DNA of 63,999 nucleotides, filler included, from Candidatus Woesearchaeota archaeon (lineage in GTDB: Archaea; Nanobdellota; Nanobdellia; Woesearchaeales; B72-G16), in the NCBI GenBank assembly GCA_003650545.1. It is 3 parts of 3 records of this genome, joined end to end, with 100 filler letters (N's around TTAATTAATTAA, not from the genome) between each part and the next. Parts side by side here need not be neighbours in the genome. Positions count along the whole stretch, not along the records: positions 30,955 to 61,212 come from QMQO01000016.1; 2 more parts are not named here. The stretch is one strand, 5' to 3'. How positions within the stretch are numbered: position 1 is the stretch's first letter; each line of letters begins with the position of its first letter. The translations under genes and the position numbers were made by a program. This document shows positions 15,291 to 61,312 of the stretch, in pieces. The notes beneath the pieces were generated by a model, which saw nothing but the letters and a program-made list of their open reading frames with translations, did no database searches and was not told the origin of the DNA.

Positions 15291-15648
15291 ATTTAAGCCT
15301 CCTAACTATTAAATCATATATTCTGCTTAGCTCAATTATATTTATAAATATATATATTCGGGACTGTATATGTGTGCGACAAAAAAATCACTATATTAGA
15401 CTAAATAAAATAAGAAAAAAATAATCCAAATCAGATAAAATCTAAAAAACAACAAATATCTAAATCCCTAAAAACCTGGTTAAGTCTGGTTTGATAGGCT
15501 AAACTGCCCTGATTTTCAGTCGGTCAGTCACTAAAGATAACCATGAGCATCTAAATATTAGTATATTAGCATATTTAAGTTGATCAGCATCTAAAATCGA
15601 AAGATTTATATATGACTTGTATAATATTATTACTATTCAGAGGTTAAA

Positions 15649-16437
15649 ATGACTGATACGCCTGATTTCGAATACTGGAAATCAAAAAAAGCAATAGAAA
15701 ATACTTTAAAAAAACGTCAGAAAATCTATAACACAGATAGCATGATCCTCAGGATTCTCTGCTATCAAGCCCTTTTAAAAGGAATCGAAGATAAAGTTAT
15801 TGAATGGCAAAAAAAGGACAATCCAAAAGCTACCCCCAAATTCAGTGTTGATTATCTTGACAGTTTAAGTAAAGAGAAACAAGAAGAATTAGTTAATTTG
15901 ATTGAAAATATTTATAGCATAAAATCAGAGCCTGGTAGATCACTTAAAAAGCCTTATTTAAGAGCATGTGCGCAACTAGCAAATCCTCCAAAAAATCTTG
16001 ATCCACAATACAGAGATTTTAAAAAAGAAGTAAGTAAAGATGTTCAAAAATATTTTGAAAATCATTATATGATCGCAATAGACGATCTTAAGAAAGTTGT
16101 TGGCAGAGAAAATTTTGGAAAAAGATTAGTAGATATACTAGATGAAGCAGCAAGAAATCTTGACAAAAATCTACATAGCAAAGTTGTAACAATTGACCCA
16201 TTTCAAGAAGAACATGTTCAAGCTAGTCTGGAGTTATTTAAAGAAAAATATGGATTTAGCATAGAAAATGTCAAAAAGCCAGGCTACATGCAGATGTTTC
16301 AATATGTATTGCCAGAACTAATGCAGCTACATTATGCAGGATTATTAGAACCTGATCTTGGTAAGAAGCAAATTAAAGATTATATTGAGAATCCAAGTGA
16401 TATAAAACAACATCAGATAAACAAACAAAGATATTAA
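15649..16437 (+). CDS. Hypothetical protein
   Basis: 262-aa ORF; GAAAGATTTATATA promoter-like element and GAGGT SD upstream. Confidence 0.75.
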   Translation: MTDTPDFEYWKSKKAIENTLKKRQKIYNTDSMILRILCYQALLKGIEDKVIEWQKKDNPKATPKFSVDYLDSLSKEKQEELVNLIENIYSIKSEPGRSLKKPYLRACAQLANPPKNLDPQYRDFKKEVSKDVQKYFENHYMIAIDDLKKVVGRENFGKRLVDILDEAARNLDKNLHSKVVTIDPFQEEHVQASLELFKEKYGFSIENVKKPGYMQMFQYVLPELMQLHYAGLLEPDLGKKQIKDYIENPSDIKQHQINKQRY

Positions 16438-30854: not shown

Positions 30855-30954
30855 NNNNNNNNNNNNNNNNNNNNNNNNNNNNNNNNNNNNNNNNNNNNTT
30901 AATTAATTAANNNNNNNNNNNNNNNNNNNNNNNNNNNNNNNNNNNNNNNNNNNN
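30855..30954. other. Assembly gap with TTAATTAATTAA linker
   Basis: N runs flanking a stop-in-all-frames linker. Confidence 0.98.
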
Positions 30955-40636: not shown

Positions 40637-40659
40637 TGGTTCTTTCTTCAAGAGTTATA

Positions 40660-40771
40660 GGACGGTCATAGGGGCGTGGTTCCACCCGATCCCATTTCGA
40701 ACTCGGAAGTTAAGCACGCCTCCGTTCCATGTTGTACTGTACTTATGTACGGGAAGCATGGAAAGCTGTCC
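40660..40771 (+). rRNA. rrf: 5S rRNA (unlinked)
   Basis: GGACGGT/GCTGTCC terminal helix, CACCCGATCCCATTTCGAACTCGGAAGTTAAG core, T-run after the end. Confidence 0.95.
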
Positions 40772-40860
40772 GCTTTTTTTTCGGTCTTTTAATTTTCATA
40801 AGTTTTATATACTTGCTTATCTACATGTTTTATATTGACAACAGAAAAAAGTTTCTTATA

Positions 40861-47911: not shown

Positions 47912-48421
47912 TCAGAGTAGAGATTTAATGTAGCTTGCCAGTATCTTAGCTGTATTTTTGACATTTTTTGTGAGATCTGTTACTAAAACATTATGGCCAA
48001 GCTCCTTTGCCTCATTTAAACAGACCTGCATAACCTCAGAATCCATGTTTTCTTGGATTTTAGGCAGGGAATATCCTCTTTTCTTTAGGCGTTTATAAAG
48101 AATTTTTAAATGACAGGTCGTGACTATACATAAACTCACTTTTTTACTAGACAAATAGTGAGAAAGATGACTATCTACAATAAAAATGCCTCTTTTTTGG
48201 GACTCTATATAGCCCGAAAGGGCCCTATTTAGTGCTTTTGGGTCCACTATATAGGCCTTTTTAGCGCTATCATAACCCTCATGTAATCGGCTTTTCTTGA
48301 TAAATTTTGTCACATCTATATGTTTTGCATGTAGCAAAAGTGAGAGTTCCCTAGCTAGTGTTGACTTGCCTGTACAGGGTGTCCCTGTAATAGCCACTAT
48401 GAAATGCTTGATTTTTGCCAT
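47912..48421 (-). CDS. Adenylate kinase, AK6/Fap7 type
   Basis: ITGTPCTGKST, VDSHLSH, RLKKRGYS..KIQEN. Confidence 0.88.
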   Translation of the reverse strand: MAKIKHFIVAITGTPCTGKSTLARELSLLLHAKHIDVTKFIKKSRLHEGYDSAKKAYIVDPKALNRALSGYIESQKRGIFIVDSHLSHYLSSKKVSLCIVTTCHLKILYKRLKKRGYSLPKIQENMDSEVMQVCLNEAKELGHNVLVTDLTKNVKNTAKILASYIKSLL

Positions 48422-48703
48422 TTTAAGCCTTAGTTCTGCTGAATTTTTGTTGTTTGACTAAATAGCAGGTTTGTGAAGGATGTATATATAGCTATTTGTT
48501 ATGCCTAAAATGTATCTAAAATGTTAATCTAAAATAATGCTTTTACACAGAGTTGAGATGTTACAAAAGTGAGATTAGGCACCATTAGATTAGTTGTTTT
48601 TTAAATATAGCTTATCGTCGATAAATTGTAAATCTTTAAGTCGTGTTAAAATACATTTAAATAGCGTTTGGTTTAGTAGCCACTCTTAAGTGGTCAAAAA
48701 AAC

Positions 48704-48717
48704 GAAAAGTTTATATA
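48704..48717 (+). promoter_or_regulatory. BRE-TATA promoter upstream of the structured transcript
   Basis: GAAAAGTTTATATA matches the recurring promoter motif. Confidence 0.6.
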
Positions 48718-49001
48718 ATATTTAAGTTAACATTATTACTATTATCAAAGGTTGTTATTTGGGTTTTTACATCTTTCCCTAATCGAAAAGAGGGACTGTG
48801 AGTAAAAACTCATGCTATGTTTCCAGAAGGAAACAAATCTTGCAAATTTGCTACGAGAAAATCGAGCAAATAATAAAGAAACTTGAATAGGAATAACATA
48901 TCTAGATGGAAAACCATTAGTTTTAGGTAGTTTAAAGTTTTCTTAATAACCCTCTTGCTAGGGTTTTATATATTTGTATTTCTATAAAAAGGAGGCAAAT
49001 T

Positions 49002-49472
49002 ATGAAGAATTTTTTTGTCATTATGTTGTGTTCGGTAATTATTAACCAGAAGGTTAATTACTCTATGATTCCAGAGGAGGTACGCGTAAATCGCGTACCG
49101 GTTATATCATGGCAGGAAAGTCTGGGTGGCGAGATAGGCACAGCCTATTCTTGCGAGGACAAAGAAGAATGGTTCTGGACACTAGATGAAAATGTTGTGG
49201 TGGACTGTCTAAATAGTTCTACAATGGTCCACCTCTCCAGGACTTCTGCTACTGCTACTCTGGGGGTAAGCAGCAATGAGTTTGGCATCCTCTGGATAAA
49301 GTCTGATGAAGAAGTTGCTTTTATTAGGCTGGGGGAAAAAGAAGTAAAAGTGAAGAATTCTCCCTGCCTGTTTTCCTCCATTCACAAAGTTGTAGATGAT
49401 CTAGAAAGAGGAGGGACTGTGAGTGAAAACTCATGGTCATTACTCCTCGGAGCATCTCTAAGTCATTTTTAA
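49002..49472 (+). CDS. Hypothetical protein encoded within strongly base-paired sequence
   Basis: 156 codons, AGGAGG SD at 48990, hydrophobic N-terminus; unusually G+C-rich and self-complementary. Confidence 0.5.
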   Translation: MKNFFVIMLCSVIINQKVNYSMIPEEVRVNRVPVISWQESLGGEIGTAYSCEDKEEWFWTLDENVVVDCLNSSTMVHLSRTSATATLGVSSNEFGILWIKSDEEVAFIRLGEKEVKVKNSPCLFSSIHKVVDDLERGGTVSENSWSLLLGASLSHF

Positions 49473-49481
49473 AATCAAATT

Positions 49482-49542
49482 AGCAGGGCATAACTTGGTG
49501 ACGCTTCATAGAAGCGGCAGGGTTCGATTCCCTGGCCTGCTA
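49482..49542 (+). ncRNA. tRNA-like element lacking canonical D and anticodon arms
   Basis: AGCAGG/CCTGCT acceptor-like stem, CAGGG-TTCGATT-CCCTG T arm, CGCTTC-ATA-GAAGCG hairpin. Confidence 0.6.
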
Positions 49543-49680
49543 TAGTTGAAATACTTTGGCAAGAGTAACTAACAATAACTAACAACTTTTTATAAATTGT
49601 CTGTTTTTAAATAATCGAGAAGTCATAAAACTTTTTTAATAATTTTTTTCTATATCGAAATTTCAAAAAGAACATTAAAA

Positions 49681-51600
49681 TCACTTCATCTTCAAATAAA
49701 CACCAGCAGCATGCTTCTCGTATTCGCTGATAGCTTTCTCTGCCTTGGCCTTCTTGCCTGCCTTTGTCCTGCCATCCATCTTCTTAGTATTTTCTTTCTT
49801 TATCTCTTTTTGTGCTTTCTTTAACTGTTCCTTTTCTTTTTTTGTGACCTTCTTCATTCTTCTTATCCTGATGGCGCGCCTGATCATTAATTTCCCTAGG
49901 TAGTTAGCACGAATAAGTTTATGCGCTATTATTACCAAAATCAAGGAAACTGTTGCATATATTACTAACAGTAAAACGTCATTTAACATGTTCTTTAATG
50001 GTGTTGGAGGTATGAAAATGATAGATTTCTTTAATAGCTCACTACCAATTATAAACGGGTTGTAAGATTTAACAAAATTGTATAAATACAAAGGCATAGA
50101 CTCAATTGGAATTAATAGGTCTGACAATAAGAATAACAAACTGCCAACAGATATTGCTGCTAGCACAGAGGTTTCCTCTGATTTAAACAAGTAACCAATA
50201 AGCATTCCTAGAAAGATAAACAAAGATGTAGTAACGAATAAAATAAGACAGATGTTTATCCAATTATTCAGAAAATTAAGCTTGAATACTGTAACAGAAA
50301 CGCCTAAAATTATGGCTAGTTGCAAAGCTATGATTATAAGGCTAGTTAAATAAGTTGCTATTATAAAAGTTATGTCGCGAGTTGGAACAATGTAGTTTCG
50401 GAAATGTGCTGGTGATTTCTTTTCTATCATCACCAATGTTGTTGCTAATAGGATTCCTATGAACATAACAACAAGTATTATTATAGAGGGCATCTTCTTT
50501 TTTAGATAGGTCTCCTTAGCGGCAATCTGATTTACTTTTGTGGTGAACGGACTAACAATAACATCTGCTCTGGTAATTTTTATTTGACCTATAGACTCTT
50601 TTAAGTTGGTTAATTTTTTCTGAATGTCTGATATCTTGTTGTTTATTGAGCTAATGCTATCAATTGTCTTGTTTAAACTGGATATTGCTTCTGTTCTTGT
50701 ATTTTCAATGTTATTAAATTGCGATTGCACAACATTTAATCCTGTATTTAGGTTATTAACCAGCCGAGAGAGAGAACTTCCATTATTGTTAGAGAGTTCT
50801 GTCTGAAGAACTAGAACTACTGTTCTCGTGTCATTTAGATCGTCTAATAAGGCTTGCTCTTCTGATGCATTAAGACAGAAATCATCAACATCATCTTCAA
50901 GTTGCTCTATCATATCTAAAGTGTCTTCAACGACACTGTCAGCAGCTTTTGTCAAGGATTGAGATTTCTCTTTTATCTGTGAAAGGTTGTATGCGTTTGG
51001 ATCAAATTCTGTGTTGATTGATTTTAGATTTGTAATTACCTTTCCTAGGTCTACTTTAAGTTGGTTATTTGACTCTATTAAGGATGATAACTGTGCGTTT
51101 TGTGCATCTATTGTAGATTTTGTTTCTTCTAGCTTTGATAATAGTATATTTGTTAAGGATATACTTTGTTGACTTGACTTATTCATAATTGTCTTAGATA
51201 TAAGATTACCAATGGTATCAACTAAAATTAAATTAGAAGAGTCTACATGATAGATTAGCTCAACTTTTCTCTCGTTGCTTACTTCTAATGTTGCAGGTAA
51301 TTCCACACAAGCATGTATATCATTGTCGCGGATTTTCTCAATACAATCTTCTATATCTGTAAATTTAACTATATTTACATTTTCTGCTCTAAATGCCTCT
51401 AAGAATTCTTCTGTTTGGTTTGAGTATGACTCTGAATAAATTCCAATCTTAATGCTAAATGGATTGGCATTGTTAAAAGCGAGGCCCATAAGAAAGATGA
51501 TTAATAACGGCCCAAAAATAACTATTAGAGCAGATGTTTTTGAACGTAATAAAATCTTAAAGTTCTTTTTTATTATTTTAAACAGATTAATCATTTTCAA
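49681..51600 (-). CDS. ABC-2 type transporter permease with large extracellular coiled coil
   Basis: N-terminal TM, long helical loop, C-terminal TM bundle with LLIPIESMP. Confidence 0.88.
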   Translation of the reverse strand: MKMINLFKIIKKNFKILLRSKTSALIVIFGPLLIIFLMGLAFNNANPFSIKIGIYSESYSNQTEEFLEAFRAENVNIVKFTDIEDCIEKIRDNDIHACVELPATLEVSNERKVELIYHVDSSNLILVDTIGNLISKTIMNKSSQQSISLTNILLSKLEETKSTIDAQNAQLSSLIESNNQLKVDLGKVITNLKSINTEFDPNAYNLSQIKEKSQSLTKAADSVVEDTLDMIEQLEDDVDDFCLNASEEQALLDDLNDTRTVVLVLQTELSNNNGSSLSRLVNNLNTGLNVVQSQFNNIENTRTEAISSLNKTIDSISSINNKISDIQKKLTNLKESIGQIKITRADVIVSPFTTKVNQIAAKETYLKKKMPSIIILVVMFIGILLATTLVMIEKKSPAHFRNYIVPTRDITFIIATYLTSLIIIALQLAIILGVSVTVFKLNFLNNWINICLILFVTTSLFIFLGMLIGYLFKSEETSVLAAISVGSLLFLLSDLLIPIESMPLYLYNFVKSYNPFIIGSELLKKSIIFIPPTPLKNMLNDVLLLVIYATVSLILVIIAHKLIRANYLGKLMIRRAIRIRRMKKVTKKEKEQLKKAQKEIKKENTKKMDGRTKAGKKAKAEKAISEYEKHAAGVYLKMK

Positions 51601-52564
51601 CTAAGGACTCGAATATTTCATTTAAGCTTGGCTTGTTAACTCTAACATCTAATAATTTTTCGTTCATTTGCTCCATTATGTGTAAGATTCTATGAAGTGC
51701 TTGTTCTGACTTTGGTGTGTATATGATGATTTTATGACCTTTATCAATCACTTTATCAATTTTAACATCAGACGATTTCTTTAATTTCTCTATTATTTTT
51801 TTATAACGACCAGGGGCTGTTTCTAAATTAATCTCTTCATTTTTAGAATAAAGGTATTTCAGCTCATTTGGCGAACCGACCTCTAAAATTTTTCCGTTAT
51901 GTAAGATAGCAATTTTAGTGCAAAGGCCTTCTAATTCTGACAAGAAATGAGACGAGAGTAATATGGTTGTGCCTCGCTCGTTTATCTGTCTTATTAGCTC
52001 CCACATCTGCTTCCTTAGTATAGGATCCAAATCTGCAGTAGGTTCGTCTAGAATTAAAACTTGGGGTGAATGTACTAGAGCACAAGCTATGTCTAAGCGT
52101 TTTTGCATTCCTCCTGAGAGGGATCTTGCGATAGTCTTCTTTGCATCTTCTAAGCCTGTTAGTTTTAGTAATTTTTCTATGTTACTATTAAGGATTTTTT
52201 TACTCATACCATAAAGGCTACCAAAATGTCTAAGGTTCTCTATTATTGTTAGTTGTAAATAAAAACTTGGATCCTGAGAAGCAAAGCCAAAGACGGTCTC
52301 TACTTCATGTTTGTTTTTGTGAACTAATTTTAAAGATTCTGTAGTATTATCTAAGGCACGTATCGGCCTATAAAAAACCTCGCCTTCATCTGGATCAAGA
52401 AAACCAATCATGGTGTTTAGGAGGGTAGTTTTGCCACTACCTGACATACCTATAACTCCAAATATATCTCCTTTTTCAACTTTAAAAGAGACACCATCTA
52501 GAACAATCTTTTGACCAAATTGTTTAACCAAGTTTTTTACTTCGAATACGGTTACCTTGGACAT
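51587..52564 (-). CDS. ABC transporter ATP-binding protein
   Basis: GMSGSGKTT, LSGGMQKR, LILDEPT, SSH. Confidence 0.96.
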   Translation of the reverse strand: MSKVTVFEVKNLVKQFGQKIVLDGVSFKVEKGDIFGVIGMSGSGKTTLLNTMIGFLDPDEGEVFYRPIRALDNTTESLKLVHKNKHEVETVFGFASQDPSFYLQLTIIENLRHFGSLYGMSKKILNSNIEKLLKLTGLEDAKKTIARSLSGGMQKRLDIACALVHSPQVLILDEPTADLDPILRKQMWELIRQINERGTTILLSSHFLSELEGLCTKIAILHNGKILEVGSPNELKYLYSKNEEINLETAPGRYKKIIEKLKKSSDVKIDKVIDKGHKIIIYTPKSEQALHRILHIMEQMNEKLLDVRVNKPSLNEIFESLVEND

Positions 52565-61212: not shown

Positions 61213-61312
61213 NNNNNNNNNNNNNNNNNNNNNNNNNNNNNNNNNNNNNNNNNNNNTTAATTAATTAANNNNNNNNNNNNNNNNNNNNNNNNNNNNNNNN
61301 NNNNNNNNNNNN
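61213..61312. other. Assembly gap with TTAATTAATTAA linker
   Basis: N runs flanking the linker. Confidence 0.98.

Follow-up and report, generated by a model that had tools for sequence, protein, structure and literature searches.

A structured locus with a probable orphan gene and a candidate tRNA-like 3' element in a Woesearchaeota archaeon

In plant mitochondria, t-elements are non-canonical cloverleaves that carry the word GGTTCRANYCC, and Forner et al. (2007; PMC1920247) place their ends at the 5' and 3' ends of mRNAs, including downstream of ccmC, nad6, and orf138. The same report takes these elements to direct cuts by RNase P and RNase Z, with release of a small, stable RNA that resembles transfer RNA (tRNA). 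For MALAT1/mascRNA and MEN-beta/menRNA, three further reports (PMC8457004, PMC4824109, 10.64898/2026.01.19.700226) describe how RNase P sets the 3' end at a cloverleaf of ~58-61 nt with a reduced anticodon arm. Here, we describe a locus of a Woesearchaeota archaeon (assembly GCA_003650545.1) that recalls both systems. It occupies positions 48740-49545 of the 63,999-nt stretch of DNA that we analyzed (hereafter the window), which corresponds to C16:17786-18591, and consists of a densely folded region with an orphan open reading frame (ORF) followed by a tRNA-like mini-cloverleaf. We tentatively favor its reading as a lineage-specific, possibly foreign, protein-coding transcript of ~800-860 nt, with a selected RNA structure and a 3' tRNA-like element for processing or stability.

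The window is made of contigs C15 and C16 and one further piece, with runs of N at 30855-30954 and 61213-61312, and the source assembly amounts to 1.64 Mb in 133 contigs (85% complete, 36% GC). The genome is archaeal: the models of the archaeal RNase P RNA (124 bits, C14) and of the archaeal signal recognition particle (SRP) RNA (152 bits, C6) find their matches on other contigs, away from the locus. The locus is so far unique and statistically strong, and it is represented by one sequence only, which comes from a single metagenome-assembled genome.

The tRNA-like element and its described counterparts

The element is 61 nt long (49482-49542, + strand), begins 9 nt past the ORF stop on the same strand with no promoter word between the two, and has an energy of -24.1 kcal/mol when folded alone. 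Its acceptor stem (AGCAGG/CCUGCU) is accompanied by a D-loop-like segment of 13 nt in which UUGG occurs, a middle hairpin that can be drawn with a 6-bp stem and a 3-nt loop or with 5 bp and a 5-nt loop, a T-arm (CAGGG-UUCGAUU-CCCUG) that is followed directly by G and CCUGCU, and a discriminator A. The seventh acceptor pair is a G-G, and both a D stem and an anticodon loop are missing. The T-loop, GGTTCGATTCC, fits the t-element search word as given in PMC1920247.

As in a canonical tRNA, the T-arm sits on the acceptor stem. The element is nevertheless no canonical tRNA: ARAGORN reported no gene in the window, the element is absent from the 16 matches to RF00005 in the genome (E<=10), and it is unlike those of the genome's own tRNA ends that were read. 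What it shares with t-elements and mascRNA is a non-canonical cloverleaf with acceptor stem and T-arm, placed beside an ORF on the same strand. Its Rfam matches are weak, with 17 bits for tRNA-Sec and 16.2 bits for the mascRNA-menRNA family (RF01684, at 49487-49537); the latter lies far under the cut-off of 42.5, and we rejected membership in that family.

The likeness to t-elements extends to the T-arm word and to the position beside an mRNA end or ORF. In contrast to those organellar elements, the one described here lies on an archaeal chromosome, its cleavage is a prediction, and its 5' half also pairs with the start of the ORF. As with mascRNA, a long structured transcript would carry a tRNA-like cloverleaf at its 3' end; however, mascRNA belongs to vertebrate nuclei, whereas here there is no upstream triple-helical expression and nuclear retention element (ENE) and a long ORF stands upstream instead. 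The element retains the features that the end-processing enzymes of tRNA recognize (acceptor stem, T-arm, elbow, and the GG of a D-loop) and has lost the parts needed for decoding, and for this reason it probably works like the t-elements of plant mitochondria or mammalian mascRNA.

Transfer-messenger RNA (tmRNA), reviewed in PMC3985003, also combines the upper half of a tRNA, without an anticodon arm, with a structured RNA that bears an ORF. It is, however, bacterial and assembles its tRNA-like domain from two RNA ends, whereas the module found here is contiguous and lies at the 3' side. No tmRNA was detected at the locus by ARAGORN. A G-U third acceptor pair is the alanine identity pair; the third pair here is C-G, and the ORF differs from that of tmRNA in having its own Shine-Dalgarno (SD) word, its own AUG, and 156 codons.

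The disrupted tRNA genes of archaea, reviewed in PMC4033280, share with our locus the T-arm and acceptor stem of a tRNA, and one may ask if the structured region is simply the intron of a tRNA gene that has been split, permuted, or interrupted by giant or multiple introns. The T-arm and acceptor stem of the element are indeed perfect, and the genome has only seven tRNA genes by ARAGORN, several of its tRNAs carrying introns at odd places. Both acceptor strands, however, lie within 61 nt, and only 16 nt separate the D-loop-like segment from the T-arm where ~27 would be needed. Since splicing adds no sequence, these 16 nt cannot hold the 3' strand of a D stem, an anticodon arm, and a variable loop, and no intron-containing, split, or permuted arrangement of exons completes a cloverleaf. 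A bulge-helix-bulge motif consists of two 3-nt bulges 4 bp apart; none was seen at the closing helix on reading the minimum free energy (MFE) fold, for which no dedicated finder was run. In the search for a trans partner, the genome offered complements of only 10- to 13-mers, as expected by chance, and the three anticodon-arm-like hairpins of the region, against an estimated expectation of about one, correspond to a chance rate. Taken with these results, a disrupted tRNA gene is highly improbable.

ARAGORN found the seven tRNA genes of this genome across 1.64 Mb with introns allowed, and of the 16 genome-wide matches to RF00005 at E<=10, seven exceed the cut-off. A contiguous CAU anticodon arm in a tRNA-like context was not found anywhere in the genome, and the Met tRNAs were not located. 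At C129:1703-1900, two neighboring genes that resemble tRNA-Asp(GTC) and tRNA-Lys(TTT) have T-loops that appear to be interrupted by ~30 nt, which is why the Rfam matches there are only 55-58 nt long.

RNA structure and coding potential

We computed MFE folds and pair probabilities with ViennaRNA. On the + strand, the 806 nt of the locus fold at -249.7 kcal/mol (z = -6.05), and on the - strand at -208.6 kcal/mol (z = -7.31); none of 20 dinucleotide shuffles was as good in either case. The leader by itself (48740-49001) gave z = -3.47 on the + strand (0 of 200 shuffles) and z = -2.65 on the - strand (2 of 200). These z-scores do not separate the strands, and we assigned the structure to the + strand because of the promoter, the SD word, the ORF, the T-loop motif, and an energy lower by 41 kcal/mol.

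The ORF alone was compared with shuffles among synonymous codons, in which the protein and the codon usage are kept, and with permutations of its codons. It folds better than all 150 sequences of either set (z = -4.51 and z = -4.18, respectively), whereas 18 random 471-nt segments of real genes gave a mean of -0.34 in the synonymous test (standard deviation [sd] 1.07, minimum -2.34). We also ranked the core of the locus (49040-49545) among genomic windows after regression of MFE on GC: it lies 2.6 sd below the GC expectation, and 4 of 395 random 506-nt windows are lower. These four represent three loci, namely a tract of repeated motifs, a low-complexity repeat (two windows), and a non-repetitive intergenic stretch; none of them is rRNA, which is found on C2. 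The synonymous-shuffle result is stronger evidence than this genomic rank. The unusually dense + strand structure proposed in an earlier note on this DNA thus withstands both dinucleotide and codon-preserving shuffles, and the structure at the locus is real and unusual.

Two other places in the genome fold strongly. The most structured of the sampled genome windows, C26:8130-8900 (residual -69.9 kcal/mol), combines a tract of higher GC with five or more spaced copies of CCATTCCCCGTGAAAATTG-like words behind it; it could represent foreign DNA or a region of iterons or repeats. At C25:12200-12710, a non-repetitive intergenic stretch between two genes has a residual of -43.6 and exceeds our locus relative to GC.

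Every helix listed in the earlier note is present in the MFE fold of 48740-49545, with mean pair probabilities (P) from 0.42 to 1.00. In the leader, these are UCCCU/AGGGA, UGUUUCC/GGAAACA, and AUUUGCU/AGCAAAU; the others comprise GGUACGCG/CGCGUACC, GCGAGA+UAGGC/GCCUA+UCUUGC, GUUCUGGA/UCCAGGAC, GGUGGACUGU/AUGGUCCACC, and AGUCUGAUGAAG/UUUUAUUAGGCU. A central multi-helix domain (49070-49296, + strand) is closed by a 9-bp helix between UCCAGAGGA (49070) and UCCUCUGGA (49288), with P 0.96, and contains inner helices of 8, 8, 6+5, and 10 bp. It is followed by a long 3' hairpin capped by GAAA (49394-49468, + strand), whose stems GAGGAG/CUCCUC and GACUGUGAGU/ACUCAUGGUC have P 0.99 each.

The tRNA-like element is tied to the body of the transcript by a long-range helix of ~21 bp, in which ORF codons 6-13 (49017-49040, + strand) pair with 49478-49502, a stretch that takes in parts of the element's 5' acceptor strand and D-loop-like segment. 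The helix comprises three blocks, 7, 9, and 5 bp long (P 0.77-0.99), interrupted by one U-U (1x1) mismatch and a 2x3 internal loop, and it encloses the whole coding region. The fold of 48740-49600 has an energy of -268.1 kcal/mol with this helix, for which the ensemble gives a P of about 0.99, and of -263.5 kcal/mol when the acceptor stem is forced; the difference of 4.6 kcal/mol is inside the error of the model, which ignores co-transcriptional folding and tertiary contacts of the tRNA type. In the forced fold, the SD word and the AUG (48991-49005) have 49018-49033 as their pairing partner.

The ORF runs for 156 codons on the + strand, from an ATG at 49002 to a TAA at 49470-49472, and its only database entry is a 135-aa version that starts at M22. 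An SD-like AGGAGG (48990-48995, + strand) lies 12 nt before the ATG, at the peak of -11/-12 that SD words show in this genome; 131 of the 619 long ORFs of the genome have an SD-like word between -16 and -6. Of 5000 dinucleotide shuffles of 48996-49545, only four reached its open stretch of 158 codons. The codon log-odds score is 0.153 in the frame of the ORF and from -0.03 to -0.14 in the five others, and the best-scoring frame is the same in all three thirds of the ORF. Its length beyond chance, the SD word at the preferred distance, and the frame with the best codon score make translation of the ORF quite probable.

Several observations weigh against a translated message that ends in a tRNA-like element. 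The acceptor stem of the element has a P of only 0.001 in the thermodynamic ensemble, in which the SD word and the AUG are nearly always paired; the predicted fold buries both in the last leader hairpin, with P(unpaired) of 0.01-0.5 for the SD word and 0.04-0.05 for the AUG, most values over the two being 0.01-0.12. The codon score falls at about the 10th percentile of real genes (99th of off-frames) and is reached by 2% of rRNA windows, or by 6.7% when each window is scored in the best of its three frames. The GC content at third codon positions is 0.42, against 0.31 in the genes of the genome. The protein is enriched in Ser, Val, Trp, and Cys, a skew that one would expect of a sequence shaped by RNA pairing and not by the function of the protein, and its structure models are poor, with a predicted local distance difference test (pLDDT) of 0.40 for ESM and 41 for AlphaFold2. 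No homologue of either the ORF or the RNA came out of any search. Oligo-T runs end archaeal transcription, and the T5/T7 runs at 48763-48767, 49010-49016 (T7), and 49466-49470 could stop transcripts early, before the ORF or the element is reached. Lastly, the region was chosen as the best of 64 kb, so that a rank in the top 1% of the genome is expected from this selection alone.

Some of these points would suit a large non-coding structured RNA of ~550-800 nt, in which the ORF is fortuitous, the long-range helix is the closing stem, and the apparent SD word is a helix strand. The very strong folding statistics, a GC content above that of the flanks, the pairing of SD and AUG, an absolute-orphan protein with low-confidence models, an amino-acid skew toward G/U-rich codons, and a codon score that rRNA windows can reach all agree with such an RNA, but the rarity of the open stretch among shuffles, the SD word placed exactly at the spacing preferred by the genome, the single frame that scores best in every third of the ORF, and the lack of an Rfam family do not. 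The scan of the whole window against Rfam 15, which presumably includes RNase P, SRP, tmRNA, group I/II introns, GOLLD, ROOL, and OLE, returned at gathering scores only a 5S rRNA, and at E<=10 it gave nothing relevant within 48400-49800. An identity as RNase P or SRP RNA was discarded, both of these RNAs being on other contigs. The RNA is in this sense undescribed, as the earlier note had inferred. Of the forms that the note had envisaged for it, a large non-coding RNA is not the best fit in view of the ORF beyond chance, the SD spacing, and the in-frame codon signal, and we consider it unlikely; the data are best accounted for by a dual-function RNA or, put more simply, by a coding RNA whose structure is under selection. 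The 5S rRNA gene itself, the sole gathering-score match in the window, lies at 40658-40774 (77.3 bits).

A further explanation would be that of an ordinary young orphan gene, whose folding is a statistical outlier without function and whose tRNA-like element is a dead tRNA fragment. The region was selected out of 64 kb for being the most structured, it ranks only at about the top 1% once GC is regressed out, and nothing is conserved elsewhere, all of which could be understood in this way. The synonymous z-score of -4.5, however, stands ~3.9 sd beyond the mean of the 18 real-gene segments, the leader is structured independently, and the supposed dead fragment, 9 nt past the stop, pairs over ~21 bp with the beginning of the ORF. 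We therefore regard a mere outlier as quite unlikely and retain the protein-coding transcript with selected structure as the preferred reading.

Direct repeat, gene neighborhood, and comparative searches

Together with the tRNA-like element and the long-range helix, a 25-nt direct repeat is a feature that the earlier note had not listed. Its two copies of GAGGGACTGTGAGTRAAAACTCATG start at 48790 and 49411, 621 nt apart, and are identical at 24 of 25 positions; two matches were seen where 100 shuffles gave an expectation of zero. Copy 1, GAGGGACTGTGAGTAAAAACTCATG (48790-48814, + strand), belongs to the leader, and copy 2, GAGGGACTGTGAGTGAAAACTCATG (49411-49435, + strand), spans ORF codons 137-145 and forms the upper stem at the top of the GAAA-capped hairpin. 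Each copy is a hairpin, and the repeat lies outside the tRNA-like element. A hammerhead or other ribozyme in the repeats was considered and dismissed: the word CUGUGAG is one base short of CUGAUGAG, which we take to be the hammerhead word, and there is no Rfam match.

The repeat raises the possibility that the locus is the remnant of a mobile or integrated cassette, an insert of ~621 bp between 25-nt repeats beside a tRNA-type gene that has decayed to 61 nt, with the structure and the ORF as cargo that has no role in the host. This partly overlaps the reading that we prefer, which also allows for a foreign origin. A repeat pair at this distance is far beyond chance, the GC content (0.44-0.48 at the locus against 0.2-0.3 in the flanks) and the codon usage differ from those of the host, the content is orphan, and the tRNA-like fragment does not resemble the tRNA ends of the genome that were read. 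On the other hand, the GC shift and the borders of the repeat are not at the same positions, the tRNA-like element does not include the repeat, and the locus is single-copy, with no second copy in the source genome. No further copy of the repeat word was found in the source genome, in the contigs of GTDB genomes, or in IMG/VR. The contigs assembled from the source run contain one identical contig, without joints, and no empty-site form, although contigs lose rare variants. We judge a cassette remnant to be an improbable origin.

The neighboring genes are housekeeping genes on the - strand: upstream a Fap7-like AAA_18 kinase (47912-48421), and downstream an ABC-2 permease with its ATPase (49681-52564). 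They include no integrase, transposase, or recombinase. The earlier note had also suggested a DNA copy of a structured RNA replicon or of a retroelement, for which we found no support, as searches of phages, plasmids, and IMG/VR came back empty, no viral protein fold matched, and the scanned neighbors included no reverse transcriptase. A protein similar to a levivirus coat had come to mind from the strands and two C-terminal helices of the pLDDT-41 model and from the repeated hairpin; it was rejected when Foldseek gave no match in PDB or BFVD at E<=0.001.

Searches with the protein of the ORF recovered only itself among 5.8 billion clusters and 1.84 billion representatives (HMMER), no family in Pfam, PHROGs, NCBIfam, or PADLOC, and no match in IMG/VR, and a scan of metagenomes returned the source contig only. 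No RNA sequencing runs are listed that contain the locus. At the DNA level, BLAST in 60 relatives gave three matches of 20-37 nt (E ~0.005), all in the AT-rich leader and read as chance, and phages and plasmids gave none. A similarity of the leader to C1:71628 was likewise set aside as chance, because it falls inside a coding region. The kinase neighbor has homologues in 118 of 150 genomes of the same order, at identities of up to 54%, and a T-arm was present within 1.5 kb in none of the 29 kinase loci that were fetched (L018, from the unpublished genome G132, is one of them).

For the tRNA-like element, BLAST with a 68-nt piece in the 150 same-order genomes yielded matches of 14-29 nt in 37 relatives, and the five of these that were read lie within coding-looking sequence. 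A single-sequence covariance model of the element gave one match of 22 bits in the same genomes; we rejected it as a homologue, as it is a tRNA-like gene of ordinary length, called Cys by ARAGORN, that shares the 3' acceptor GCCUGCUA. The acceptor and T-arm word occurs at 46 GTDB loci. ARAGORN was applied to eight of these and called tRNA-Met in two bacterial loci, tRNA-Leu(CAA) and tRNA-Leu(TAA) in a Methanocella locus, tRNA-Cys in one Nanoarchaeota locus, and no tRNA in four. These word matches give no clear ancestor, and an origin of the element from a class II (Leu-type) tRNA is only a guess.

An odd tRNA of 71 nt was met in a same-order genome (L051 1502-1572 / L092 73-143). ARAGORN calls it Cys(GCA), and in our reading it has an A1-U72 pair, three acceptor G-U pairs, and a C in place of U before the anticodon. 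It lies directly after the 3' end of another tRNA.

Transcript ends and a possible coupling of translation to processing

The archaeal promoter announced in the earlier note is present, as are AGGAGG and the 156-codon ORF: a CGAAAAG word that resembles a B-recognition element (BRE) and a TATA word, TTTATATA (48710-48717), together span 48703-48717 on the + strand and agree with the promoter word of the genome. In leaderless genes of this genome, TATA-like motifs peak 30 nt upstream of the ATG, and from this spacing the transcript of the locus is predicted to start near 48740 (about 48738-48742). The promoter word and the first transcribed bases are common to a normal gene of 262 aa at window 15595-15649, and near-identical promoter words are found at other loci of the genome. 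Genome-wide, two classes of starts can be distinguished, one with TATA at -30, which implies leaderless mRNAs, and one with SD-like words at -11/-12.

The resulting leader would be 262 nt long (48740-49001, + strand) and holds five local hairpins, with helices of P 0.8-0.99. One of them, H2, is a perfect 16-nt palindrome, GTTTCC-AGAA-GGAAAC (48819-48834, + strand, P 0.97), which could equally be a protein-binding site at the DNA level. Farther downstream, the + strand segment 48949-48972 has in succession a hairpin ACCCU/AGGGU, a T4 run, and another TATA-like word, TTTATATA (48965-48972). This word stands at -37 from the ATG, off the -30 peak of the genome and without the CGAAA word, and as an internal terminator or promoter the segment is a weak candidate. 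Past the tRNA-like element, two T5 runs on the + strand (49587-49591 and 49604-49608) are candidate archaeal terminators.

A 19-nt inverted repeat (48742-48760 / 49577-49595) is 84% complementary, or 17 of 19 pairs counting G-U. Through it, the transcript's predicted 5' end could base-pair with the sequence around the first T5 terminator; both arms of the repeat are AT-rich. We do not interpret it as a miniature inverted-repeat transposable element, given that the locus is single-copy and the arms are AT-rich.

If the element is recognized as a tRNA, cleavage by RNase P, whose RNA is encoded in the genome, would fall at 49481/49482 and define the 3' end of the mRNA, and tRNase Z and the CCA enzyme would then release a small tRNA-like RNA. 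In the alternative fold, the 5' half of the element would instead pair with ORF codons 6-13 and close off the coding region. A ribosome crossing codons 6-13 would free this 5' half; once the cloverleaf forms, the released 49018-49033 would in turn pair with the SD word and the AUG. This arrangement suggests a coupling of translation, 3' processing, and re-initiation, which we infer from one sequence. The two repeat hairpins could be twin binding sites for one factor, or else insertion scars.

Carried further, the same features could describe an archaeal dual-function RNA of a new kind, with a scaffold-like structure of ~800 nt in addition to the protein. The switch between the tRNA-like module and the long-range helix would couple translation to RNase P processing and to the release of the small RNA, and the twin hairpins would bind a factor in trans, possibly the encoded protein itself. 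We think this fuller scheme rather unlikely, and the preferred reading stays with a coding transcript that carries a processing or stability element.

Processing of the element, if it occurs, would give the t-elements of plant mitochondria and vertebrate mascRNA a counterpart on an archaeal chromosome, and tRNA-end enzymes would shape mRNA ends in DPANN archaea, in which RNA processing is almost unstudied. The reuse of a stripped tRNA module as a signal would fit the recycling of tRNA-derived parts, and the tRNA genes of this genome are heavily rearranged. The folding of the ORF, ~4 sd past that of its synonymous recodings, allows selection on mRNA structure to be tested cleanly at a single locus; alternatively, the locus tests the case of a large structured RNA that gained or kept an ORF. 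Its value lies in the testable predictions that can be drawn from one sequence alone, rather than in a demonstrated function.

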